From a virus (lineage: Duplodnaviria; Heunggongvirae; Uroviricota; Caudoviricetes): 19,227 bases of DNA. Below the pieces are notes generated by a model. It had not been told where the DNA came from and made no database searches. It saw only the letters and a program-made list of their open reading frames with translations. Shown here piece by piece: positions 3,105 to 15,807 of this stretch. The stretch is from IMG/VR virus record IMGVR_UViG_2778261379_000001. The stretch is one strand, 5' to 3'. The number at the start of each line of letters is the position of its first letter. Position 1 is the stretch's first letter. Position numbers and translations under genes: made by a program.

Positions 3105-3177
3105 TGAAAAAATCGGGCGGTGGGTGCGCGGTGTAAACGGTCACGGAGTCAAACCGGAACACCGCGCACGCCGCCCG
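3105..3177 (-). terminator. GC-rich hairpin with T-tract on the minus strand between M and L (candidate intra-operon intrinsic terminator)
   Basis: Arms 3114..3134 (CGGGCGGTGGGTGCGCGGTGT) and 3159..3177 (ACACCGCGCACGCCGCCCG) are near-complementary. On the minus strand the stem is followed by TTTTTT, then the L SD. Confidence 0.4.
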
Positions 3178-3193
3178 CTGACGGGGTCAGTCG

Positions 3194-3994
3194 TTAACCG
3201 CGCTTTGCCTTCTGCGTCGCGGTGGTTTTTCGTGTTGCAGGCTTCCGCGTTGTCTTTTTACTTTTGCTGCTTTCGTCCTGCGCCTGCTGTGCGCTGGCGT
3301 CTTCTGGTTCGGCTGCGGAATCGGCTTTTTTCAGGGCGCGGGAAAGGGTTGCAATCTCGCGTTTCACACCTGCGTTCGGGTTCAGGTGCATCGCTTCGCG
3401 CAGCAGCTTCAGTGATGAGGCCATGTTGTCTGCATCGGTCAGGCCACGACGGGCAAAGGCACACGCCTTGCATAATTTGGCGCGCACTTCGTCCGGCATG
3501 TCCTGGTTGGCGATAATTTCCCAAAGTGTGTCCAGTGGTTCGATAAAGGCGGATAAATCCGCGTCGGCATCCGTCCCAGCCTGCGTCAGTACCGGGTTGC
3601 AGATTTCTTCGGTCAGTACCGTGGCAGCAGTACGGCCAAAGTTATCCGGCATGATGAGGTTGTGACGGACCACATATGCACCAATACGCAGCGCCAGCGG
3701 AAGATCGCCGCAGTCAATCGCCCACACCATCAGCGTGGCAATTACTTCGTCCTGTTGCCCGCCGTCAGCCTCCAGCGTTCCCTCAATCCAGCCGGAAAAG
3801 TCCGGCAACAACTCTTTTTTGATGGCGGCTTTCGCGCTTCTGGCCTGTATGGCCTTTAGCCTGGCCTGTGCCAGACGCAGACGATACAGCACCTCTTCAT
3901 GCGCGGTACACGCGGCGTGGTCCACACCTTCATTCGCCCGGCCTGCGCGCTGTGCCATCACGTTCTGCCAGTGTTGTTGTGCAGGAGTAATCAT
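3194..3994 (-). CDS. M: terminase endonuclease (small) subunit, gpM-like
   Basis: 266 aa at the P2 gpM position between N and L. ATG with SD GGAGAG upstream. Confidence 0.8.
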   Translation of the reverse strand: MITPAQQHWQNVMAQRAGRANEGVDHAACTAHEEVLYRLRLAQARLKAIQARSAKAAIKKELLPDFSGWIEGTLEADGGQQDEVIATLMVWAIDCGDLPLALRIGAYVVRHNLIMPDNFGRTAATVLTEEICNPVLTQAGTDADADLSAFIEPLDTLWEIIANQDMPDEVRAKLCKACAFARRGLTDADNMASSLKLLREAMHLNPNAGVKREIATLSRALKKADSAAEPEDASAQQAQDESSKSKKTTRKPATRKTTATQKAKRG

Positions 3995-4039
3995 TTTTTC
4001 TCTCCGTTACAGGCGGGCATGATGCCCGCCGTGAGTTGA

Positions 4040-5092
4040 TTAGCTGTCGGCGAACTTCAGGCCAGTGACCATCGCGCACTTGCCATAGTCTTCAACGACA
4101 TAAGCGTCATTGATGGACTGGTAGGTGGCGATGCGGTTGTATTCCGGCTCGTCTTTCATCAGGCGACGCATTGAACCTTTCTGCCAGTAAATCGACAGGT
4201 TGTTGAACGAGGTGATAAGCATCGTTGCATCCGGGAAGAACGGCGCAAGGAACACGCCCAGCCCGCCAATGGTGCGCGATGACAGGATGAGCTGCCCGGC
4301 AAGTAATTCCGCATTGGGATTCTGGCCGCTGATGCTGTTCAGCACGGGCAGACGCAGCGAGTTAAACAGGTTGCGCCCCATAATCACCGCGAGGTCGTCA
4401 GCTTCCTTGTGCCATTCATCCAGCAGGGATGAGCGCGCATCCTGTACCAGAGCATCGGCATTCGCATACTTACCCGCGTGCGCCACAGTGTTGTCCATGT
4501 TGCGGGAGGTCAGCGTCACGTCATTCATTACGCGCTCGCTGGCATCGGTTCTGATGTGCTCCAGCCAGCCCACGTTAACGTCCTGAAGCAGCTTGTTGGT
4601 GTGAAAATCAGACTCGTAGGCGTGGGATGTGCCGTTAAAGCCAATCATGATGCGATCAAGCGCTACCTGCCGGGCGATCTGTGTACTGATACGGGACTGA
4701 AAATCGCTGTGGGCCGCCCAGGTATCAAGCTGTGGGTACGAAATAAAGGTATCGTAGTTCACCTGTTCGCACTGGTACTGACGAGACTTCATATCGATCA
4801 CGTTATTCGGGTTACGGCGTTTGATGCCGTCATAACTGCTATTCGTGCGCGCAATTGGCCCGGTGGTGTCCAGGAGGATTTTTTCGCCTTTCTGGTCGGT
4901 CACGCCGATCACGTTAATTCTTTTCGTAAATTCGGTACTTTCCTTTGAGGCGTTTTCAAAACGCTGCTGCACCGCGGGTTCCACGGTAAATCGCGATACC
5001 AGTGCAGATACCGGGATATTGTTAAGCGACGCCTGCTGCGCCATATAGCAACCCAGCTTGTTGCGGGTAATATCTGACATCACCAGATTCAT
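4040..5092 (-). CDS. N: major capsid protein, gpN-like
   Basis: 350 aa with blocks matching remembered P2 gpN: RFTVEP, GWLEHIR, LSIYWQ, YVVEDY. A second ATG at 5080 is an alternative start. Confidence 0.9.
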   Translation of the reverse strand: MNLVMSDITRNKLGCYMAQQASLNNIPVSALVSRFTVEPAVQQRFENASKESTEFTKRINVIGVTDQKGEKILLDTTGPIARTNSSYDGIKRRNPNNVIDMKSRQYQCEQVNYDTFISYPQLDTWAAHSDFQSRISTQIARQVALDRIMIGFNGTSHAYESDFHTNKLLQDVNVGWLEHIRTDASERVMNDVTLTSRNMDNTVAHAGKYANADALVQDARSSLLDEWHKEADDLAVIMGRNLFNSLRLPVLNSISGQNPNAELLAGQLILSSRTIGGLGVFLAPFFPDATMLITSFNNLSIYWQKGSMRRLMKDEPEYNRIATYQSINDAYVVEDYGKCAMVTGLKFADS

Positions 5093-5115
5093 AAAAAATT
5101 TGCTCCTTTGTCTTA

Positions 5116-5952
5116 TCAGAAGTCAGCCAGCTGGTCGGAGGCTGCGCCCGTTGCGGTGAAGCGGTTCTGCGGATCGCCGTCCTGCGTGCGCAGTTTTTCC
5201 TTCAATGCTGTCAGCTCTGTGGTCAGTGACGTGATTTTCTGGCGGTCCTGCTGATGGCGGGTTTCCAGCACATTAAAACGGTCGATAATGTCGGCCTGTG
5301 ACGTTGCAACGCCTTCCACCGCTTCCTGAATTCGGGAGAAACTGGCGTCATCCGCTTTGCGGCCACGACCAATAATCCCCATTACGCGGTTAAACCACTG
5401 GGTGCCTTCTTCCTGGCGTTGTTCTGCCATTTCGATGATTTCAGACTCGATGGCTTCGGAGATAAGCGGTGCTTCACCCTGGATACTGTTGAACGTCATC
5501 ACCGCCTGACGTTGCTGTGCCGTGAATTTCAGGCGCTCAGTGCCCAGGCTTGCCGGGGTGTCGGTCATCGCCAGCCCGACCAGATAGGCGCGCCCGTTAA
5601 CGGAGAACTGCGGGTGCAGTTCGATACTGGAATAGATTTTCTTGCCGTCAGCGACAAGCTGCTTCATGCGCTCGGTCGGTTCGATTTCTGCATACAGCGC
5701 AGTACGTCCGGCCAGCGGACCTTCCGTAATGTCTTCCGTACTCAGTGCGGTGACATCGCCCATTGCGGAAAATTCGCTTGACGGACATGGCGAGAGATAG
5801 TGCTCAACGTTCACGCGGGCAGCGTAAACATCCGGGTTGAAGTTCTCGGCGGCTTCACGCAGATGCACCGGACTGATTTCACGGCCATCAACAGTTGATC
5901 CGGAGACAGCCACGCGAAACTTTTTGCGGGATGTCTTTTTTTCATTAGCCAT
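5116..5952 (-). CDS. O: capsid scaffold protein, gpO-like
   Basis: Start taken at the internal ATG at 5952, which has SD GAGGGG 8 nt upstream: MANEKKTSRKKFRVAVSGSTVDGREIS..., matching the P2 gpO N-terminus. The track ATG at 5985 has no SD. Confidence 0.85.
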   Translation of the reverse strand: MANEKKTSRKKFRVAVSGSTVDGREISPVHLREAAENFNPDVYAARVNVEHYLSPCPSSEFSAMGDVTALSTEDITEGPLAGRTALYAEIEPTERMKQLVADGKKIYSSIELHPQFSVNGRAYLVGLAMTDTPASLGTERLKFTAQQRQAVMTFNSIQGEAPLISEAIESEIIEMAEQRQEEGTQWFNRVMGIIGRGRKADDASFSRIQEAVEGVATSQADIIDRFNVLETRHQQDRQKITSLTTELTALKEKLRTQDGDPQNRFTATGAASDQLADF

Positions 5953-5985
5953 AGTTTTTGCCCCTCTGACTGGTTCTTCAGTCAT

Positions 5986-6106
5986 GATGGCAAAGCGTAA
6001 CAGGCTGATACAAAGGGCTTTTGTTGTAAGAAAACAGTCAGAACAGAGGGTTAAGGAGAACAGTTTCGCGCGCGGGTAATCTTCCTGTAATTACTCAGGG
6101 GGAGCA
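5986..6106. promoter_or_regulatory. divergent late-promoter region between O (minus) and P (plus)
   Basis: 121-bp intergenic region separating divergent late operons, as for P2 PO/PP. I could not place a TGT-N12-ACA activator dyad with confidence. Confidence 0.4.
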
Positions 6107-7858
6107 ATGATTCAGGACGCTTTTGTGCGCCAGCGTGCGCGGCAACTTTACTGGCAGGGTTATCCGCCCGCAGAAATATCACGTCTGATGGGAATAAACC
6201 CGAACACGATTTATGCGTGGAAAAAACGTGACCAGTGGGATGAAACGCCACCCGTGCAGCGTGTCACGCAGTCCATCGATGCGCGCCTCATCCAGCTTAC
6301 TGAAAAACAGAATAAAACAGGCGGTGACTTTAAGGAAATAGACCTGCTGACCCGGCAGCTTAAAAAGCTGCATGATGGCCAGCCGGATGTGATGGCCGCA
6401 GGAAAGAAAGGCCGGGCGAAAAAACTCAAAAATCATTTCACGCCGGAACAGATTGCCGCACTGCGGGAAAAAATCATCAGCAGGCTGGAGTGGCATCAGC
6501 GGGGCTGGTTTGACTCCCTGACCCTTTGCAGGGAAGCCGGGATACGTAACAGGATGATCCTGAAATCCCGACAGATTGGGGCGACCTGGTATTTTGCACA
6601 GGAAGCACTGCTGATGGCGCTGCGTGACGATGTGGCGCAACCTTACCAGCGTAACCAGATTTTTTTGTCTGCGTCGCGTCGTCAGGCGTTCCAGTTTAAA
6701 AGCATTATTCAGAAGGCCGCGGCTGAAGTTGATGTGGAGCTGAAAGGGGGCGATAAAATCATCCTCTCCAACGGCGCAGAGCTGCATTTTCTCGGCACTT
6801 CTGCTGCGTCGGCACAGTCCTATACGGGCAATTTTTATTTTGATGAATTTTTCTGGGTCAGTCGCTTTGCTGAACTGCGCAAGGTGGCTGGCGCTATGGC
6901 AACCCTCAGCGGACTGCGGCGCACCTACTTCTCCACGCCATCCACCGAAACGCACGAGGCATACGCCTACTGGAACGGCGACCGCTGGAACGAGAAAAAG
7001 GCCTCGCATAAACGCCAGCGTTTTTCTGTGGACTGGAAAACGCTGCATAATGGGCTTATCTGCCCTGACCGGACGTGGCGGCAAATTGTCACGCTGGAAG
7101 ATGTGGTTAATCACGGCTGGAAACACACCGATATCGACGAAATTCGTGATGAAAACACCGAAGACGAGTTCCTCAATCTCTATATGTGTGAGTTTGTCCG
7201 CGAAGGGGAATCGGCATTTAACCTGAATATCCTGATTGGCTGCGGTGTTGACGGATACGACGACTGGAAAGACTGGAAACCTTTTGCTCCCCGCCCGATG
7301 GGGAATCGTCCGGTATGGATTGGGTATGACGCAAACGGCAGTAGTGGCAACGGCGACAGCGGCGCTGTGTCCGTGGTGGTTCCTCCGGCTGTTCCTGGCG
7401 GCCGTTTTCGAACGGTGGAGACGCGACGCGTTCAGGGGCTGGAGTTTGAAGAACAGGCCAGAGTCATTGAAGAGTTCACGTGTCGCTACAACGTGGAACA
7501 CATCGGCATTGATGTGACGGGCGGGAACGGGGAGGCTGTTTATCAGATAGTGAAGCGGTTTTTCCCTGCTGCTATTCCGTACACCTTCACGCTGTCATCA
7601 AAACGGTCGCTGGTACTGAAAATGCTGCAAATAATGCGTGCCGGGCGGTGGGAATACGATCGCGCCGAACGCGAGCTGGTCGCGGCCTTTAACGCCGTGC
7701 GTAAGGTGAAAACACCGGGCGGCTTTATCACTTACGAAACGGACCGCGCGAGGGGGATCAGCCACGGCGACCTTGCGTGGGCAACCATGCTTGCTGTCAT
7801 TAACGAACCAATTGGCGGCGAAGGAGAAAACGAGCGTTTCATGGTTATGGAGTTCTGA
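6107..7858 (+). CDS. P: terminase ATPase (large) subunit, gpP-like
   Basis: 583 aa. N-terminus LYWQGYPPAEISRLMGINPNTIYAWKKRDQWDE matches remembered P2 gpP. Stop overlaps the Q start (TGATG). Confidence 0.9.
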   Translation: MIQDAFVRQRARQLYWQGYPPAEISRLMGINPNTIYAWKKRDQWDETPPVQRVTQSIDARLIQLTEKQNKTGGDFKEIDLLTRQLKKLHDGQPDVMAAGKKGRAKKLKNHFTPEQIAALREKIISRLEWHQRGWFDSLTLCREAGIRNRMILKSRQIGATWYFAQEALLMALRDDVAQPYQRNQIFLSASRRQAFQFKSIIQKAAAEVDVELKGGDKIILSNGAELHFLGTSAASAQSYTGNFYFDEFFWVSRFAELRKVAGAMATLSGLRRTYFSTPSTETHEAYAYWNGDRWNEKKASHKRQRFSVDWKTLHNGLICPDRTWRQIVTLEDVVNHGWKHTDIDEIRDENTEDEFLNLYMCEFVREGESAFNLNILIGCGVDGYDDWKDWKPFAPRPMGNRPVWIGYDANGSSGNGDSGAVSVVVPPAVPGGRFRTVETRRVQGLEFEEQARVIEEFTCRYNVEHIGIDVTGGNGEAVYQIVKRFFPAAIPYTFTLSSKRSLVLKMLQIMRAGRWEYDRAERELVAAFNAVRKVKTPGGFITYETDRARGISHGDLAWATMLAVINEPIGGEGENERFMVMEF

Positions 7859-8904
7859 TGAGCAGAAAAAATAAAAAAGTGCGCATGAGTTCACGCATTG
7901 ATCTCGCTGATGCGCTCAGGAAAGAATCATCGCTCAGTGCATTCACATTTGATGGTCCTTATCGCCTGACCGGGCATGACCTGCTGGACAATATGTACTG
8001 TGCTGATAACGGGCGGTGGTATGAAACCCCGGTGGACTGGTACGGTCTGGCAAGAGCAGCCCGGCAAACGTCCTGGCATCAGTCTGCGCTTTACTTTAAG
8101 CGCAATGTATTACTCGGTTGCTACATCCCGCACCCGCTGCTTTCCCGGCAGGATTTCTCGGCGCTGGCGCTGGACTGGTTTGTGTTCGGTAACGCATTCC
8201 TTGAGCTTCGAAGCAATATGCTCGGCGAACCGCTTAAATTACGGCACGCCCTGGCGAAATACATGCGACGCGGAAGCGATCTTGAATCATGGTGGTATGT
8301 GCAGGATGGCAAGGACGCGTTTCAGTTTCGTCCTGGCAAAGTGTGCCACCTGATGAATCCGGATATTAACCAGGAAATCTACGGCATGCCGGAATATCTT
8401 GGCGCATTACTCTCGGCCAGCCTTTCTCATTCGGCGGACATGTTCAGAAAACTGTACTACGACAACGGATCCCACGCCGGGTGCATCATCTACATCGGTG
8501 CAGCGCAGGTAAACCGCGAAAGCATGGACTCCCTGAAAGAAACGCTACAGGGGGCACGTGGTGGTGGTGCGTTTAAAAACGTGCTCATTCATGCGCCCAA
8601 CGGGGGCAAAGAGGGGGTGCAAATTTTGCCGTTCCAGCAGATCACCGCAAAAGATGAATTCATGAATGTTAAGGCGGCATCCCGTGATGATGTGCTGGCT
8701 GCGCACCGCGTTCCGCCGCAACTGATGGGGGCGATGCCGGGCGAAAAAAGTGCGTTTGGCGATGTGGAGAAGGCAGCGCGGGTTTACGCAATTAACGAGC
8801 TGATGCCCGTTATGGAGGCTATGAAGCACATCAATGACTGGCTTGGCGAAGAGGTGATCCGTTTTAACTCTTATGCTCTTCTTGATGAAAAAACAGCCCC
8901 GTGA
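7858..8904 (+). CDS. Q: portal (capsid vertex) protein, gpQ-like
   Basis: 348 aa with blocks NGRWYE, FVFGNAFLE, DINQEIYGMPEYL, HRVPPQLMG, WLGEEVIRF matching remembered P2 gpQ. Confidence 0.9.
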   Translation: MSRKNKKVRMSSRIDLADALRKESSLSAFTFDGPYRLTGHDLLDNMYCADNGRWYETPVDWYGLARAARQTSWHQSALYFKRNVLLGCYIPHPLLSRQDFSALALDWFVFGNAFLELRSNMLGEPLKLRHALAKYMRRGSDLESWWYVQDGKDAFQFRPGKVCHLMNPDINQEIYGMPEYLGALLSASLSHSADMFRKLYYDNGSHAGCIIYIGAAQVNRESMDSLKETLQGARGGGAFKNVLIHAPNGGKEGVQILPFQQITAKDEFMNVKAASRDDVLAAHRVPPQLMGAMPGEKSAFGDVEKAARVYAINELMPVMEAMKHINDWLGEEVIRFNSYALLDEKTAP

Positions 8905-8920
8905 TGGGGCTGTCCTTTTT
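8888..8920. terminator. bidirectional intrinsic terminator between convergent Q and the 174-aa gene
   Basis: Stem ACAGCCCC (8893..8900) pairs with GGGGCTGT (8906..8913) around a 5-nt loop. A T-run follows on the plus strand (8916..8920) and on the minus strand (complement of the A-run 8888..8892). The hairpin overlaps the Q stop codon. Confidence 0.5.
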
Positions 8921-9443
8921 ACCAGAGTTGAACCATTTTCTGGGTGCCGTCAGGCTTGAGATTATCAATTTCAGAGAGAACGTAATATTGAATGGCTTCA
9001 CAAACGGTGGTGTAGGGTGAATTACCTTCTTTAAGTGGCACGATATTATTATTAACGCGAACCTGTATTTCATCGTTATACATTGCGATCGAAACAGGAG
9101 TGTGCACGAACGCGACTTCGCCAGGTGTGTCGTCAACCACCGTTTCAATACTAAAAGTCAGTTTTCGCTCATCATTGCTGCCCCGTGCTTTGGGGGTAGC
9201 GGCAGGGATCTGGGATAAAGGCATTCTGCGAAATCCTTCGGCTGCTTCCAGTCCGCATGAAACGTAATGCTGGCGATTACCGTCGCTATCTGTCCAGGTC
9301 TGTGATGGCAGCTCCAGCGAGATTTCATAAGCATCAACAATGCCCTGGGCAAGGCGTACAAGCGGGGTCAGATCTTCATTGCGGCGAAAGCTCTCCTTTA
9401 CCTGCTCCCGTTTTTCTCTTAACTGCTTGTAATTAATGACCAT
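8919..9443 (-). CDS. hypothetical protein, 174 aa (orphan accessory gene convergent with Q)
   Basis: Start taken at ATG 9443 with SD GGAGG 7 nt upstream (MVINYKQLREKREQVKESF...). The track start 9482 is a GTG. No motif I recognise. Ends in the shared terminator hairpin. Confidence 0.55.
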   Translation of the reverse strand: MVINYKQLREKREQVKESFRRNEDLTPLVRLAQGIVDAYEISLELPSQTWTDSDGNRQHYVSCGLEAAEGFRRMPLSQIPAATPKARGSNDERKLTFSIETVVDDTPGEVAFVHTPVSIAMYNDEIQVRVNNNIVPLKEGNSPYTTVCEAIQYYVLSEIDNLKPDGTQKMVQLW

Positions 9444-9542
9444 AAGACAGCCTCCATTGATTTCTTTGCTCGTATTTTGCACTTATGAAGTATGGTCGGC
9501 AAGGTGCCGTATCGCTGACGCGCTTCGCTTGTCTGCTGCTTC

Positions 9543-9571
9543 GCCGGGGCATAAAAAATTTATGCCCCGGC
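9543..9571. repeat. perfect 13-bp-stem palindrome GCCGGGGCATAAA/TTTATGCCCCGGC with 3-nt loop
   Basis: Read directly from the sequence. No T-tract on either side, so not a classical intrinsic terminator. Lies about 100 bp upstream of the 174-aa gene start. Confidence 0.5.
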
Positions 9572-9848
9572 TCTCCAGCTCCTGTATCAATCAGATAATT
9601 TCACGACGCCTTCCAGTTTATCGCCACCATCGACGGTCAGACTCTTACGCAATTCCACCGCGTTGACTGCATGTTCTCGCTGCCTCAGTGCGATTTTGAC
9701 GGCCTTACCTTTCACCCCATCAAATCAAAAGCCCTCACGCCTTTTTCATGCTCAGCGTGAGAAATATGGCCATTCTGTTGTGTCTCTGCGACATCGTTCA
9801 GGGAATGCTATTTACCCCCTGAAACGCGGGCTGTTCCCCCGTCACCTG

Positions 9849-9872
9849 CGCGCAGAAAAAGCGCGTTTTTTT
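9849..9872 (+). terminator. candidate plus-strand intrinsic terminator
   Basis: CGCGC-AGAAAAA-GCGCG followed by TTTTTTT. No convincing coding ORF lies upstream on the plus strand. Confidence 0.35.
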
Positions 9873-9942
9873 GTGCACGCACGGATCCTTGACGGATCCA
9901 GCCGCCATGCGGGCCGGAAGGGTAAAAAGTCGTTCAAAAAAA

Positions 9943-9969
9943 TTGTGCAAATTTGTGCACTTTTGTGCA
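9943..9969 (+). repeat. three direct TTGTGCA heptamers at exact 10-bp phasing (9943, 9953, 9963)
   Basis: Sequence reads TTGTGCAaatTTGTGCActtTTGTGCA. The last copy ends about 20 bp upstream of the candidate -35. Confidence 0.45.
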
Positions 9970-9988
9970 GGTAAGCATGCCTATATAT

Positions 9989-10017
9989 TTGACCGTGGCT
10001 TGCCTTTGATGTAGTTT
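9989..10017 (+). promoter_or_regulatory. candidate sigma70-type promoter for the AT-rich cassette
   Basis: TTGACC (9989..9994), 17-bp spacer, TAGTTT (10012..10017). Weak -10, pattern match only. Confidence 0.25.
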
Positions 10018-10069
10018 ATACGTCACAAAAACCACAAAACGTGGTTATGATTTCTATGAGGGGGTTGAT

Positions 10070-10105
10070 ATGAAAAAAATGTATGATGAATTTGATGGTT
10101 TCTAA
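10070..10105 (+). CDS. candidate 11-codon leader peptide (MKKMYDEFDGF)
   Basis: ATG preceded by GAGGGGG SD with about 6-nt spacer, stop TAA at 10103..10105, followed 20 nt later by an intrinsic terminator and then the first cassette gene. Confidence 0.25.
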   Translation: MKKMYDEFDGF

Positions 10106-10125
10106 GCTACGTTGACCTCTAATGA

Positions 10126-10152
10126 GGCGGGGATTTGCTCCCCGCCTTTTTT
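10126..10152 (+). terminator. intrinsic terminator / candidate attenuator just upstream of the cassette
   Basis: GGCGGGGA-TTTGC-TCCCCGCC followed by TTTTTT. The stop of the hairpin is 14 nt before the 10167 start codon. Confidence 0.45.
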
Positions 10153-10166
10153 ATGGATGAAATAGG

Positions 10167-10664
10167 ATGAACCCAATAACACTACAAATCATCAGCAATG
10201 CTATTGTTCTGCTTGGCGTTTTGGTTGCCATTGGAACCATTATCTACAATGTGCGTACCGCAAAAAAAACTCAAACGGCCAACTTTCTTTTTGAGAGTCG
10301 GCAAGATATGCAATATATAGAGTCATTGCATACCCTGAAACAAGTGCATCGTTCAGGCAAATCATTTCGTTCTTATGTTTTTCCTTGTGATGGTTGCATA
10401 ATAACAGATGAAGAAATGGCCGAGCGTCGAAAATTTCAATATATTTTAAATTTTTACGAGCGAGTTGCTGTAAGTATTCGTGAAGGTATTTATGATGAAA
10501 AAATGATAAAAAGAACATCTTACACAACAGTTGTAGAGACATATGATATTGCCGAGCCATTAATTAAAGCAATCAGAGAAAGCATTAATTCGGATACTAC
10601 ATATCAAGAATTCGAATGGTTAGTAAGAAGATGGAAAGCTAATCCTTTACGGAAAAACAAATAA
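10167..10664 (+). CDS. hypothetical membrane-anchored protein, 165 aa (one N-terminal TM helix plus soluble domain); first gene of AT-rich cassette
   Basis: ATG start. N-terminus ITLQIISNAIVLLGVLVAIGTIIY is a clear TM helix followed by a charged, mixed soluble region. Codon usage is strongly AT-biased relative to neighbours. No motif I recognise. Confidence 0.65.
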   Translation: MNPITLQIISNAIVLLGVLVAIGTIIYNVRTAKKTQTANFLFESRQDMQYIESLHTLKQVHRSGKSFRSYVFPCDGCIITDEEMAERRKFQYILNFYERVAVSIREGIYDEKMIKRTSYTTVVETYDIAEPLIKAIRESINSDTTYQEFEWLVRRWKANPLRKNK

Positions 10665-10703
10665 TGTTTTACCCTTTAATTTACAAGTAACACAGGGGGA
10701 AGT

Positions 10704-11546
10704 GTGACACAGAATCCGTTTTCATTTTATGACTTTTTGGGCTATCTAATTCCAGGTGGGTTATTCCTGTTTATCCTTTTTTTGTTTTCTATTGAAATTA
10801 ACCCTGTTTATATAGAAGGTATTCTTAACCATATCCTGAAATATAAAGAAATAATAAGTGTATTTATATATGTGGTATTAATCGTTCTATCATATATTTC
10901 AGGTCACTTCATATCTATTCTATCATCCTGTTTAATTGAAAAATACATGAACAGTAAACTTGGGTATCCTTCAATTTATCTGTTTTCTAAAAGAAGCTCC
11001 CTGAAAATAAAACGACATAATACTAAGTTCAGTATAGTTAATTTTATTCGTGGAGTTTTTTTATTTCCTGTATCAGCTTTTGATAAAGCAGAACATCATA
11101 AAACCACACTGCATTCTATACTTATTAAAGTCTTTTGGCCGCAAATACGAGATGGTTATATAAATGTTTTTTCTGTATCTACGCTATATCGACGTAAGGG
11201 CTTGAGGGGCGATCTTTTTCGCCTTGCTTATCATTATGTGTATGAACATTCTAAAAATCATCAGGTGAAAATGCAAAACTATGTTGCTTTGTATGGTTTT
11301 TGTAGAAACATTACATTTGTTTTTCTCGCTTCAGTCTGGTTGCTTATGTTCCTGCTCCTTCTATCCTTTTTAATAGATATAAATATCAGACTGTTACCTT
11401 TTTGTTTTCTTCTCTTGTTTTGTATTGCTGCATCCCGAGTATTTTATTATGGTTTTGTTAAGTATTATCGCCGCTATTCTCTTGAGGTTTTAATGGCATT
11501 TGCGGTACTTCAGCACGATAAAAAAACTTCGGCAATTTCATCATGA
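10704..11546 (+). CDS. hypothetical polytopic membrane protein, 280 aa (about four TM helices: two N-terminal, two C-terminal, with a central cytosolic region)
   Basis: GTG start with GGGGGA SD just upstream. Hydrophobic segments at about residues 12-29, 52-75, 197-220 and 225-245. AT-rich like the upstream gene, 39-bp gap, same strand. Confidence 0.65.
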   Translation: MTQNPFSFYDFLGYLIPGGLFLFILFLFSIEINPVYIEGILNHILKYKEIISVFIYVVLIVLSYISGHFISILSSCLIEKYMNSKLGYPSIYLFSKRSSLKIKRHNTKFSIVNFIRGVFLFPVSAFDKAEHHKTTLHSILIKVFWPQIRDGYINVFSVSTLYRRKGLRGDLFRLAYHYVYEHSKNHQVKMQNYVALYGFCRNITFVFLASVWLLMFLLLLSFLIDINIRLLPFCFLLLFCIAASRVFYYGFVKYYRRYSLEVLMAFAVLQHDKKTSAISS

Positions 11547-11557
11547 TTTGAAACATT

Positions 11558-11580
11558 GGCACCCTGTTAGCAAGGGTGCC
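11558..11580. other. hairpin GGCACCCT-GTTAGCA-AGGGTGCC between the convergent cassette and parR
   Basis: Read directly from the sequence. No adjacent T-tract on either strand. Confidence 0.3.
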
Positions 11581-11629
11581 AGAATGATGTGTTGGTCTGT
11601 ATTTTATTAGTTCACATACAATTATCAGA

Positions 11630-11944
11630 TTATTCTGGGAATAAGGTCTGAATATTCTTTTTTATTTTATAAAAATTGCATTCAACTCCGCTAGGCTGAT
11701 TATCCTGGTATGTTTCCTTGATGCTAACGGTATTGAAGGGGAGGTTGTCCTCTGGCCATTCGGCCATCCAGTAGGCAAATGCTGGGTTGCGCTTTATGAG
11801 CGCTAGCCCAGCCAGAAAGGCCGCGCGTTGCGCGCGGCTGCGTTCGGAGGCTGGCAGGCTATCGAGGTAATTGCACGCCTCCTGTTCACTCTTGACGGCG
11901 GCGGGCTTCAGATAGAAACTTATCCGTCTGGTTGGTGTCGTCAT
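11630..11944 (-). CDS. parR: ParR-like partition adaptor (ribbon-helix-helix centromere-binding protein)
   Basis: Internal ATG at 11944 with SD AAGGAG 7 nt upstream, 4 nt after the parM stop. N-terminal region RRISFYLKP...LDSLPASERSRAQRAAFLAGLALIKRNP aligns with remembered R1 ParR (RRTIAFKLNP...LDSIPQGERSRLNRAALTAGLALYRQDP). Confidence 0.6.
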   Translation of the reverse strand: MTTPTRRISFYLKPAAVKSEQEACNYLDSLPASERSRAQRAAFLAGLALIKRNPAFAYWMAEWPEDNLPFNTVSIKETYQDNQPSGVECNFYKIKKNIQTLFPE

Positions 11945-11948
11945 TGGT

Positions 11949-12908
11949 TTACTCCTTGTCCATTGCGTACAGCCCATTAACCAGAGCAAACTGTGGCACC
12001 CCGTCCGCGATGAAAGTCGCATTAACTCCGCAGACTTCGCGGATAGCGGGTGCCACAATCTCCGCCCCTCCACCGACAACCATCACCCGCCCGTAACCCG
12101 AAAAAACCGCCAGCGCGCGGATCACGCGTTGTTTCAGTGTTTCTTCCTTTTCACGAATAACCGCCATCAGGCTGGCGTAATGCGCGTCATTGTGGATGTG
12201 CTGGCGCAGCCAGGCTTCATCATGGCGATGTTCGATAATGGTATTGGCGATGTGGTGACTGGTGCGCATACCGTTAGTGGCCATCACCGACAGTACGGCA
12301 TCGGCCATCAGGGAAACGCCTACGTGTGGATCGCAAAACACCTGGCTGATACCTGCCAGTTGCCCTTGAACCTTTGCCACATCCAGCGTGGTTCCGCCTA
12401 AATCCACAATCAGCAGGGATTCAAACGGACTCATGTCAGCCAGTGCTTTAAAGCCAGCCGGAATGGATTCAGGCATAACCCGCACGTTACGGATAGTGAA
12501 TGCTTCGCCGTTCTGGTATTCCACCGGGCGCATAACGTTCGCTTTTTTGCGGTTGATGTTGGCCATGTCCGGCTGTGCGTTTGTGTCGAAATACTCGCTC
12601 AGTGGCAGGGTGACAACCACATCCACCTCCTGTGGCGTGATGCCTGATTTGACCAGCGCGTGATGAATGGCGATTACATTCACATCGCTGTACTGGTATT
12701 GCGTGTCGGTCGTCTGGACAAAGCGATCGCTAACCGGATCAAAACCATAGCGCACGCCATCAAGCATGTAGTTCGCGGGCTGCATGCCACCGAACGGCGC
12801 AGACCATTCCGACTTGAAGCTGTTCGGGCTGATGGCGTTGCGGCGTTCGCCATTCTCAGTCCATGCCAGCTTGATGTTGGTGGAGCCGTCGTCGATACAA
12901 ATTTTCAT
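11949..12908 (-). CDS. parM: ParM/StbA-family actin-like segregation ATPase
   Basis: 319 aa. N-terminus MKICIDDGSTNIKLAW...ISPNSFKSEW...YQYSDVNVIAIHHALVKSG closely matches remembered R1 ParM (MLVFIDDGSTNIKLQW...ISPNSFKREW...WQYSDVNVVAVHHALLTSG). Good SD AAGGA. Confidence 0.85.
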   Translation of the reverse strand: MKICIDDGSTNIKLAWTENGERRNAISPNSFKSEWSAPFGGMQPANYMLDGVRYGFDPVSDRFVQTTDTQYQYSDVNVIAIHHALVKSGITPQEVDVVVTLPLSEYFDTNAQPDMANINRKKANVMRPVEYQNGEAFTIRNVRVMPESIPAGFKALADMSPFESLLIVDLGGTTLDVAKVQGQLAGISQVFCDPHVGVSLMADAVLSVMATNGMRTSHHIANTIIEHRHDEAWLRQHIHNDAHYASLMAVIREKEETLKQRVIRALAVFSGYGRVMVVGGGAEIVAPAIREVCGVNATFIADGVPQFALVNGLYAMDKE

Positions 12909-12939: not shown

Positions 12940-13051
12940 TTTACGGGATTCTGAAATCCCGTTTTTGCCTGTTTTGTGCGCGCTTCATATATCGCTGCGC
13001 GTTTTTTGCTCATTTACGGGATTCGTAAGTCCCGTTTCTGTCTGTTTTTTG
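12940..13051. repeat. two about 39-bp direct repeats (12940..12978 and 13013..13051, 33/39 identical), each containing an ACGGGA(TT)/(AA)TCCCGT inverted repeat; candidate parC centromere/operator
   Basis: Repeat 1 lies in the A-parM intergenic region 32-70 bp upstream of parM. Repeat 2 lies within the last codons of gene A. The two copies are 73 bp apart. Confidence 0.45.
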
Positions 13052-15807
13052 TTTCCACTGGTCAGGCCACCCCGCAGCAGGTCTGCTTTGCGGCTGGCGC
13101 GTTCAGTGGTTTCACTGATTCTCTGTGCGTGCTCTGCGTCGCGGATGGCGCGCAGCATGTCAGAAAGCACGGTAACGGGTGTTTTCATGGTGTTCTGGCC
13201 CTGCTGAAGTGTGGATGCCAGGCGTGCGGCGGCTTCAGGGTCTGATGCCCCCAGCTGTGCCAGATAGCTGGCGACCGGGTTATGGCGGATCTCCGTGCTG
13301 CTTACGCCATGATTACGGCTCAGGCGCTGCCAGAGCTGCGTGATTCGGCTGTCCGGGCGGGTATCCGGTTTGCGTACAATTTCAAATCCCTGCGGTGCAA
13401 TGATGCTGCCGTCAACGTACAGACTGCCGCCCCGTAACAGGTGCTGCATCTGTTGTTCACCGATATGCAGGCCGAGAGATTCAGCAGACTCCCGCCATTC
13501 TTTAGCGAGTAATTCGTGGTTATCAGGCAAAGGCCGCTGCTGTTTGCGGCTCTGTGTCCAGCTCTGCATTTCATCGCTGCTGTTTTTTGCCTGTTTGTCA
13601 CGAAGCGAACGCATCAGCGCCCGGCGTTCGTGTCGTTTCAGTGAGCGCATCCATTCGTTCACTTCAACGCCGTCAGGGAGCTGCGGCCACGGTGCTGGCC
13701 GTTCTTCCGGCTGTTCTGTCCCGTTGTTGTCCGTTTCCTGTACACGGGGACAGTTATTGCCACGAGTCCAAGGGGCGGCAGGGCCGCCCTGAAGGTCAAA
13801 ACCATTTTCGCGGGCGCTGTCTTCCGCTTCCGGTTTACGTCTTACCAGCTTCCAGTTATCCGGATGCGTGCACACACGGGAGGATTCCCCGATGAGTGGT
13901 GACCAGATCCCGTAAATCTGTACGCTCTGTTCGCCGTAATCGTTCAGCTCATCTGCGAGGTCGTAGGCGGTGCGAATCAGGTAGTCCTTGCGTGGAACAA
14001 GCACGCCACCCTGTTTTTCAATGTAGGTGGCAAAACACCCGGCATCGGCGGCAGCGAGTACCGCATCCATTGCATCATCTTTCAGCCGTTGCGGGCCTTC
14101 CGGATTGCGTGCCATCTGGCTGGCAAGGCGGCGCAGTTCACGCCACACCTGACGGGAGGGGATGCCAAAGAACTGGAACTGACGGACCCGGTGAAGGCGC
14201 GCCCAGCCGATGGCGCGCTCCACGCTCTCGGCCATTGATTTTCCGGTTTCGTGGTCCACGCGTGGCTTGCCCGTTTTCGGGTCGATGCCATCCACGGCGC
14301 GGCTGTCCAGGTTCTTTCCGATGTAGGTGGCGATGTAGCTGGTTGGCGTGCCTTTTGAGCCGTCGACATACTCCACCTTAAAGCGCGGAGTAATATCATT
14401 GCCCAGCTCGTGGCGGTCTTCCTGAATGGCAATATCGCGGGTATGGGACACAATGGTGTCGATTTCTTCCGGATGTGCAAAGACCATCATATGCCAGTGC
14501 ACGGTGCCGTCATGATGAGGCTCCACCGTGCGGATGCCATACCAGCGCAGGCCGTCGCGGTTCAGTTTTTTGCGGACCGCCGCAAAAAACGTGTTAACCA
14601 GGTAATCGCTGGAGTCGCGCATTGTGGCCCCGTTCCATTTGGGATTCGGATGACCGTTCTCCGTTGTGGCGTGGTATTTTGACGGGCAGGTGACAGTCAG
14701 AAACACCGCTTTGTCGCCACGGGCTTCGGCCAGAAGTTCCAGTCCCTTCATGGTGGCCATCATTTCTGCCTTACGGTGAACCGGGTTACTTACTCCCGCG
14801 TAATACACTGTCTCGAGATCAATCGTGAACCCGTCTTCATTTTCCAGCATGAAACTTTTCAGGAAATCGCGTGTTTTCTCGCGCTGTGCGCGAAACTCGC
14901 TTAACGCGTCCTGGCTCAGATAGGGTGATGTTTTTCTGGAAACCAGACAGGCGGCGCGGAGTTGTTCTTCTCTCCACTCGCAACGTAACAGCCACAGTTT
15001 GCGTTTCCACCATTCCGCACAGGTCAGGCGAAGGATTGCGCCCGGCAGCAGCTCCGTGTCCGGTTCGTTCCTCCGGTCTTTGTCTGTTGTCAGTGCGTCA
15101 TAATGTGGAGGCATGGCGTGCAGGTGTAACGCCATGCGGGCCAGCATCTGATACGCCTTCAGGGTTACATCCATGGTCAGCTCGCCATCGGTCGCGCCAA
15201 AGCCATCGCAGAGTTTTTCGAAGGTGCTGCTGAACATCGCCGCCGTCATGGTGGCCAGCGTCTGTATCTGGTGTTTGTTGAGCTGCGGCAGGTAAAGCAA
15301 ATCGTCCAGGCGTTCGCGTCCGGCAAGGGAGCGATAACCCGGTGTCAGCCAGCGTCCGTCAGTGCTATCCAGACGTTCGAATATTTTGCGCAGGGTTCCG
15401 CGTGCATAGCGTTCCGCCTGCCAGCTCTTTTTGCCTTTCCGGCGATCGGCTTCCTGTTTTTTGCGCAGGAAGGAGAGGTGGCGAATAAGCGGATCGCGCA
15501 GATAGGACGGCAGCAGGCGCAGCGAGGCCATGGCTTCATCCACCGCGCCACGTGCCTGTTTTCTGGCGTCTCCTGCCAGTGTGATGGTTTTGTCCTGTTT
15601 TTCCTGTGCGTCCAGGCTTTTATTAATCAGGTTGCCCAGCGGCGTGGCTGAGAACGCCGCATCAGCCATTTCCTGGCGGCGCTCGTTCTCTGCCCGGTAG
15701 GCATCCAGCCAGGAGGAAAGCGCGGATTCAGGAGCGGGGATCCCCGTTCCTTCACGCCCCACTGCGTGGCGCGGTTGTTGCCAGTCCCTGAGGTACTCTG
15801 CCGTCAT
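12985..15807 (-). CDS. A: replication initiation endonuclease (gpA-like, HUH rolling-circle nickase)
   Basis: 940 aa containing HUH motif DGTVHWHMMVFAHPEE and the tyrosine pair SYIATYIGKN. Position after the early genes is as in P2. Longer than P2 gpA as I remember it (761 aa), with the extra length C-terminal. Confidence 0.85.
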   Translation of the reverse strand: MTAEYLRDWQQPRHAVGREGTGIPAPESALSSWLDAYRAENERRQEMADAAFSATPLGNLINKSLDAQEKQDKTITLAGDARKQARGAVDEAMASLRLLPSYLRDPLIRHLSFLRKKQEADRRKGKKSWQAERYARGTLRKIFERLDSTDGRWLTPGYRSLAGRERLDDLLYLPQLNKHQIQTLATMTAAMFSSTFEKLCDGFGATDGELTMDVTLKAYQMLARMALHLHAMPPHYDALTTDKDRRNEPDTELLPGAILRLTCAEWWKRKLWLLRCEWREEQLRAACLVSRKTSPYLSQDALSEFRAQREKTRDFLKSFMLENEDGFTIDLETVYYAGVSNPVHRKAEMMATMKGLELLAEARGDKAVFLTVTCPSKYHATTENGHPNPKWNGATMRDSSDYLVNTFFAAVRKKLNRDGLRWYGIRTVEPHHDGTVHWHMMVFAHPEEIDTIVSHTRDIAIQEDRHELGNDITPRFKVEYVDGSKGTPTSYIATYIGKNLDSRAVDGIDPKTGKPRVDHETGKSMAESVERAIGWARLHRVRQFQFFGIPSRQVWRELRRLASQMARNPEGPQRLKDDAMDAVLAAADAGCFATYIEKQGGVLVPRKDYLIRTAYDLADELNDYGEQSVQIYGIWSPLIGESSRVCTHPDNWKLVRRKPEAEDSARENGFDLQGGPAAPWTRGNNCPRVQETDNNGTEQPEERPAPWPQLPDGVEVNEWMRSLKRHERRALMRSLRDKQAKNSSDEMQSWTQSRKQQRPLPDNHELLAKEWRESAESLGLHIGEQQMQHLLRGGSLYVDGSIIAPQGFEIVRKPDTRPDSRITQLWQRLSRNHGVSSTEIRHNPVASYLAQLGASDPEAAARLASTLQQGQNTMKTPVTVLSDMLRAIRDAEHAQRISETTERASRKADLLRGGLTSGNKKQTETGLTNPVNEQKTRSDI

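Follow-up and report, generated by a model that had tools for sequence, protein, structure and literature searches.

The cos sites of P2 and P4 have long been established. A core of 55 bp conserved between the two is given in two later papers (PMC5694545, PMC9594776, citing Ziermann and Calendar 1990), and sequences flanking that core reportedly affect cosmid transduction (PMC9594776). P2 and P4 have been reported to have only the cos region in common, and satellites are packaged by the terminase of their helper, with which they share little beyond cos (PMC9122126). In P2-like phages, cos and an adjoining hotspot of accessory and defence genes lie between the portal gene and gpA (PMC9122126; also PMC13586616). 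The small terminase subunit generally recognises viral DNA, and in the case of lambda the cosB region is made up of the sites R3-I1-R2-R1, which are bound by the small subunit gpNu1 (PMC7617512).

The right ends of P2, 186 and P4 show the same order of elements, namely the cohesive end, a GC hairpin with a T-run, one AATGCA copy, a spacer of unrelated sequence and three ATGCA copies. Counted from the first base of cosN, the four copies start at +44, +116, +126 and +138/139, and by our own position count the 55-bp core covers the solitary copy, which corresponds to the element we call R0 below, and not the three clustered copies that correspond to R1-R3. Our literature search, whose reach did not include Ziermann and Calendar 1990, returned no description of these RTGCA repeats, of a rule that sets them 72 bp apart or of a cos site in the P88 lineage.

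The window that we analysed (the whole stretch of 19,227 nucleotides) is, judged by its sequence, a P88-like (Peduoviridae) prophage of E. coli, and BLAST against phage records found it to be 100% identical to ST131-associated phage records. Its features are collected in Table 1. The array of heptamers with which this work is concerned sits between the portal gene gpQ and gpA, the interval that holds cos in the P2 family, and 1157 of 5426 complete E. coli genomes (~21%) contain the phage version of the cos region, array included. Some of the surroundings differ among relatives. A ParM/StbB-like plasmid partition module (11630-12908) lies between the hotspot and gpA; it is found in most P88-like relatives and is absent from the phiT5282H-like group. 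Compared with P88 and most relatives, the window also has an insertion of ~610 bp (8905-9514) that extends from the portal stop codon to the conserved left part of the cos region and holds a minus-strand ORF of 187 aa (8919-9482) with no match in Pfam or PADLOC. Among relatives the portal is found at either -437 or -1042 from the array and, since this offset takes two values, 8905-9514 is a second, small variable locus.

Table 1. Features of the window, from the terminase genes to gpA (positions in nucleotides of the window; cos elements are predicted)
Feature	Position	Strand	Basis or remark
gpM-type small terminase subunit	3194-3994	-	Pfam Phage_term_smal, E = 2.4e-37; presumed binder of the repeats
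P2-type capsid	4040-5092	-	Pfam
Scaffold	5116-5985	-	Pfam
gpP-type large terminase	6107-7858	+	Pfam Terminase_6N, Terminase_6C, Terminase_5, HTH_23; N-terminal helix-turn-helix
Portal gpQ	7858-8904	+	marks the left side of the cos region
cosN, predicted cohesive end	9828-9846	-	reads 5'-GGTGACGGGGGAACAGCCC; plus strand GGGCTGTTCCCCCGTCACC
GC-rich inverted repeat with T-run, GCGCGCagaaaaaGCGCG-T7	9848-9870	+	between cosN and R0; terminator-like in scan
R0, solitary TTGTGCA	9871-9877	+	24-26 nt past cosN
Spacer	9878-9935		sequence variable, length fixed; R0 to R1 72 bp start to start
A7 tract	9936-9942	+	abuts R1; nearly invariant in GTGCA-type relatives
R1-R3, three TTGTGCA at a period of 10 bp	9943-9969	+	exact copies at 9943-9949, 9953-9959 and 9963-9969; the array of the initial annotation
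Left edge of the variable cos-adjacent hotspot	9970		similarity to relatives stops here
Cassette promoter candidate	9989-10017	+	-35 TTGACC, 17-nt spacer, -10 TAGTTT (10012-10017)
Leader ORF of 11 codons, MKKMYDEFDGF	10071-10106	+	conserved in DUF4760 cassettes
Intrinsic terminator with T-run	10124-10148	+	within leader region 10071-10154; just before the DUF4760 start codon
DUF4760 protein gene	10167-10664	+	cassette gene 1
280-aa protein gene	10704-11546	+	cassette gene 2
Plasmid_stab_B protein	11630-12079		Pfam; ~1.7 kb from the array
ParM	11949-12908	-	Pfam
Replication protein gpA	12985-15807	-	Pfam

The initial annotation of this DNA had drawn attention to three identical TTGTGCA heptamers in exact 10-bp phasing that end about 20 bp upstream of a candidate -35 element. 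This description holds. Tandem Repeats Finder reported a period-10 array at 9939-9969, and the gap from the end of R3 to TTGACC (9989-9994) measures 19 bp. TTGTGCA occurs six times in the whole window against 4.86 expected, an unremarkable total; it is the clustering that is unusual. When sequences were simulated from a first-order Markov model of the window, any non-trivial 7-mer was present three times at a period of 8-12 in just one of 2000 simulations, and at a period of 10 in none of 2000. A fourth TTGTGCA (R0), which had been overlooked, lies exactly 72 bp upstream of the first array copy. The two copies that remain, at 3977 and 18717, are singles compatible with chance, and neither the immunity region nor any other part of the window holds a second cluster. 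Phased TTGTGCA arrays of three to five copies also occur in unrelated viral contigs of IMG/VR (L014, L041 and L047; L068 and L085; L035), which are non-P2 contexts with neither a portal nor a cos core nearby; the TTGTGCA array is therefore not unique to this type of cos.

We consider it likely that the four heptamers are terminase recognition repeats flanking cos, the P88-lineage equivalent of the RTGCA repeats of P2, 186 and P4. The layout in the window is homologous to that of P2, 186 and P4 in that: (i) the repeats lie between the portal gene Q and a variable region near gene A; (ii) one RTGCA copy follows a T-run at 24-26 nt from cosN and three more follow 72 bp on, R0, R1, R2 and R3 starting in the window at +46, +118, +128 and +138 from the first base of cosN, such that R0 is the counterpart of the AATGCA copy ~25 nt past the cohesive end; and (iii) the window lineage, like P2/P4, has a cos that is shared by dependent satellites. 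There are also differences. The repeat is GTGCA (extended, TTGTGCA) in the window lineage and ATGCA in P2, 186 and P4, and the step from R2 to R3 is 10 bp in the window as opposed to 12-13 bp. The A7 tract in front of R1 is a feature of the window that P2, 186 and P4 do not have, and the hairpin and spacer sequences of the window are unrelated to theirs, although a hairpin with a T-run is found at the same position in all three. In addition, the cos of the window lineage is a prediction from sequence, whereas that of P2 and P4 is long established.

The predicted cohesive end of the window is identical to that of P2 (GGCGAGGCGGGGAAAGCAC) at 13 of 19 positions when the two are aligned by eye. 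This G-rich stretch of 19 nt is invariant or nearly so among 26 dereplicated relatives; it lies ~115 bp upstream of the R1-R3 array, and its placement relative to the first repeat is as in P2. The hairpin that follows it is not conserved in phiT5282H-type relatives. No phage record in the collection searched starts at the predicted cosN, and the ends of records were set aside as evidence for its position, as those of P88_4B11 and 500465-2 begin inside or beyond the cos region at mutually mismatched positions that are probably arbitrary assembly or prophage boundaries. Folded as single-stranded DNA, 9825-9975 did not exceed shuffled sequences in stability (z = -1.03), and a role of the array as a structural hairpin is therefore unsupported. 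The terminator scan did flag a 5-bp 'terminator-like' stem within R1-R2, which arises because GTGCAC is palindromic.

The geometry of the four repeats is fixed to a degree that their sequence surroundings are not. P2, 186, P4 and the window all have R0 and R1 exactly 72 bp apart. Among GTGCA-type loci, 128 of 130 share this distance and the remaining two have 71 bp; among the ATGCA-type loci with a cos core that a separate IMG/VR scan returned, 106 of 108 have it. Despite this fixed length, the sequence of the spacer is unrelated between lineages. As our first IMG/VR set was retrieved with the array as bait, the conservation seen in it is partly circular, and this was countered by repeating the search with the cosN core alone and by using BLAST-based sets. 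With the cosN core alone, three phased copies were found at the expected place in 101 of 102 evaluable cos contexts, that is, those in which the cos context was present and enough sequence was available. Individual copies had changed at zero to two positions in this set, and the core T-G-Y-G-C was retained. Conservation of this kind suggests that R1-R3 would be needed for packaging.

The sole exception in this set (L156, IMG/VR contig 2648501669_000002) has a deletion that fuses R0 to R3, TTTTGTGCACTATTGTGCAGCAGGG; the deletion probably arose by recombination between GTGCAC copies, and the prophage is presumably packaging-defective. A further five IMG/VR loci (L013, L062, L064, L065 and L128) combine the P2-like cohesive-end core CCCCGCCTCGCC with GTGCA-type repeats, and in two of these (L064 and L128) R0 is doubled, GTGCACTTTGTGCA. 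Since the CCCCGCCTCGCC core occurs together with GTGCA repeats, it would seem that the recognition repeats and the site of cleavage can evolve independently of each other.

Where the conserved region ends bears directly on what the array is for. In BLAST against phage records, the matches to nearly all relatives run up to 9969, where R3 has its last base, and no further; the alignments with P88 and 500465-2, and with phiT5282H, a distant Enterobacter phage, break at this same base. An IMG/VR scan with the array as the pattern returned 120 loci, at least 104 of which have the portal at a fixed upstream offset together with the same cos-like block. Past R3, by contrast, these loci fall into at least 25 unrelated junction classes. 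The first ORF of at least 90 aa is on the minus strand in 17 of 25 classes, i.e. transcribed towards the array, and such convergent cassettes often end in a terminator that abuts it; in the other 8 of 25 the first gene is on the plus strand. The array thus belongs to the conserved phage backbone and not to the cassette. It is not co-inherited with one promoter or one gene. The best explanation for its closeness to the DUF4760 cassette is that the cos-adjacent hotspot (described in PMC9122126) starts where the constraint on cos stops.

The repeats are also retained in satellites. Fifty-eight ATGCA-type loci are P4-like, having matches to psu, delta, sid, alpha or int and no portal. In these, psu is transcribed towards the array and its 3' end is ~45 bp short of it. 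In P4 itself the repeats face psu, and gop, beta and cII, which make up the variable hotspot, lie across cosN from them. For the GTGCA type, BLAST of E. coli genomes uncovered a satellite-like island of ~11 kb next to hpt/can (L130, positions 3155-12138; also L133 and L134). This island encodes MazEF, a P2-family capsid protein (423 aa), an ogr/Delta zinc-finger protein and an integrase, as well as an 889-aa toprim primase, an Icd-like protein and a 236-aa protein without known function; no portal or terminase genes were found in it. Its cosN, R0 and AAAAATTGTGCAAATTTGTGCACTTTTGTGCAG are intact and all four GTGCA repeats are present, with a 72-bp spacer that has diverged, and it is in carrying cosN, R0 and R1-R3 together that this island shares a cos with the phage, as satellites of the P2 family do. 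Downstream of the array, the island has annotated genes on the opposite strand only. The island's version of cos was found in ~56 complete E. coli genomes.

The initial annotation had read the heptamers as a cooperative protein-binding array that makes the membrane-protein cassette regulated rather than constitutive. The first part of this stands, in that there is a phased array, probably bound by protein, under strong selection with a fixed helical geometry; the second part does not, given that at least 25 unrelated junction classes, of which 17 are convergent, follow this array in one relative or another, and that satellites have kept it. That the heptamers form an operator array through which a host or phage transcription factor controls the promoter of the DUF4760 cassette is in our view very improbable: being retained with other cassettes in either orientation, the array is unlikely to be an operator of this one. 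What speaks for such an operator is that the phased array lies 19 bp upstream of a -35 element shared by DUF4760 cassettes; relative to the probable start of transcription this is about -57 to -83, a range in which activators bind. The likeness to phased operator and iteron arrays is real as far as it goes (short direct repeats with helical periodicity, upstream of a promoter in this genome), but the array of the window is conserved regardless of the identity and orientation of the gene downstream, the hpt-linked satellite has kept it with no plus-strand gene downstream, its ATGCA form lies past the 3' end of psu in P4-like elements, and a second motif cluster, as might be looked for in the immunity region, is lacking in the window. 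Moreover, the cassette comes with a promoter, a leader ORF and a terminator of its own. Related DUF4760 cassettes in other phages share the TTGAC of its -35 and its -10 region (TAATTT in relatives), and differ from one another in the sequence between R3 and the -35; a consensus promoter scan did not call this promoter, and the sites that it found were no more numerous than in shuffles. A second use of the repeats would be compatible with packaging: they would be a cos element first, and A/T-rich phased DNA or occupancy by terminase late in infection would also modulate the adjoining promoter. We regard this as unlikely. In P2, by our own reading of the sequence and the annotated starts (33424/33426), the -35 of the old-tin promoter (TTGAAT, 17-nt spacer, TAAAAA) overlaps R3, in the window the array is placed as an upstream element or activator site would be with respect to the cassette promoter, and 8 of 25 junction classes have a first gene on the plus strand. 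However, the distance from array to promoter is not conserved across cassettes, most cassettes are convergent, and the idea is a purely inferential one that draws no support from the comparisons.

Two other readings take the repeats out of transcription and packaging alike. One is that they are a recombination signal that sets the boundary of the hotspot and drives the exchange of cassettes. In all relatives the junction does coincide to the base with the end of R3, the fusion of R0 to R3 in L156 implies that the repeats can recombine, and Rousset et al. (2022) speculate that closeness to cos promotes exchange (PMC9122126). Still, purifying selection on an essential site would give an equally sharp junction, the hotspot and the repeats of P4 are on opposite sides of cosN, implying that the repeats are not tied to the hotspot, and the constant 72 bp and the persistence of the repeats in satellites are as expected for packaging; we would give a recombination signal very little chance of being the correct explanation. 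The other is that the repeats are a parC-like centromere for ParM/StbB, replication iterons or a product of chance, which we find extremely improbable. Centromeres and iterons are both phased direct repeats, and ParM and the Plasmid_stab_B protein are encoded only ~1.7 kb away, but the array is present in many relatives without a ParM match (e.g. L009, L012, L017 and L019) and in P2, 186 and P4, where the regions that we looked at contain no gene annotated for partition. It is also downstream of the par operon, not upstream, with a variable cassette in between, and chance is excluded by the Markov simulations.

Ogr/Delta-dependent late promoters carry a TGT-N12-ACA motif centred near -55. We considered such a site as well and rejected it, as TGT-N12-ACA is absent from the array and the window has two matches (9776 and 10010) against 4.4 expected.

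If the cassette is regulated, its leader is a better candidate for the site of control than the array. The leader (10061-10154) has a strong ribosome-binding site, the 11-codon ORF and the terminator, and these are conserved across diverged cassettes (L051, L082/L009, L096 and L166). The ORF has the form M[KRT]K[MVR][FY]DEFDGF in relatives, i.e. M-x-K-x-[FY]-DEFDGF. It is a candidate for a leader-peptide attenuator or, alternatively, for a micro-protein gene. An Rfam search of 9400-10400 at a permissive threshold gave only a sub-threshold chance match on the cassette terminator. The 280-aa protein encoded by the second gene of the cassette has no significant Pfam family and only a weak PADLOC match, to Csx27, a CRISPR type VI-B associated membrane protein (E = 1.1e-5).

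Returning to the repeats as part of cos, the binder is likely to be the phage terminase and the function likely to be packaging, because the array belongs to the backbone, stands before unrelated cassettes and is kept in satellites. A plausible scenario is that, late in infection, terminase would assemble on R1-R3 along one face of the helix, behind the A7 tract. The protein in contact with the repeats would most likely be gpM, the small subunit, possibly together with the helix-turn-helix N-terminus of gpP; gpP, presumed to be the cosN nuclease, is also the alternative candidate for binding the repeats. By looping or wrapping of the spacer, terminase would also contact R0, 72 bp (~seven helical turns) away. 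The nuclease of gpP would in this way be placed on the 19-nt cosN (~9828-9846) just upstream, where it would cut, and packaging would start. An oligomer that contacts both groups of sites is suggested by the 10-bp phasing taken together with the invariant 72 bp, which is also ~seven turns. We looked to the terminase subunits themselves for a pointer to the binder, but their identity to the P2 proteins is only 37% for gpM and 45% for gpP, a divergence that cannot by itself assign it. This divergence would be compatible with the change from ATGCA to GTGCA, without proving that the two are linked.

There is precedent for such an arrangement in lambda cosB, where the same logic applies: short repeats beside the nicking site serve as a platform on which the small subunit assembles, with bending of the DNA between sites. 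The resemblance is an analogy of function only, as there is no sequence homology and the number, orientation and spacing of the sites differ. Another difference from lambda is that the repeats of the window and the terminase and portal genes are on opposite sides of cosN, and a reading of the spacer sequence of the window revealed no IHF consensus.

We would go one step further, although only tentatively, as we think the following possible but rather doubtful. The '1 + 3' layout of RTGCA repeats with its 72-bp gap may be a platform for terminase assembly throughout the Peduoviridae and their satellites, an analogue of cosB that reaches well beyond the 55-bp core and may have gone unrecognised, and the choice of G (P88 lineage) or A (P2, 186 and P4) as first base of the repeat may be a code for specificity between helper and satellite. 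If this were true, the island next to hpt, with its own capsid gene, would be a parasite specialised on P88-like phages. The P88-lineage element extends the known cos of P2 and P4, and there is a modest possibility that the extended layout and a G/A specificity are features not described before.

Reading the heptamers as part of cos turns a putative regulatory element into a packaging signal, and prevents a mistaken conclusion about control of the cassette. The same reading accounts for the base-precise start of the hotspot of defence genes and morons. What emerges is a likely complete cos signal (~9828-9969) for a lineage that is present in ~21% of complete E. coli genomes, ST131 among them, and this signal would be usable in the design of cosmids and transducing particles and of cos-knockout helper strains. 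Finally, the 72-bp geometry and the G/A difference offer a simple, testable model of how terminase may assemble, and of how helper-satellite specificity may be set, in the P2 family.
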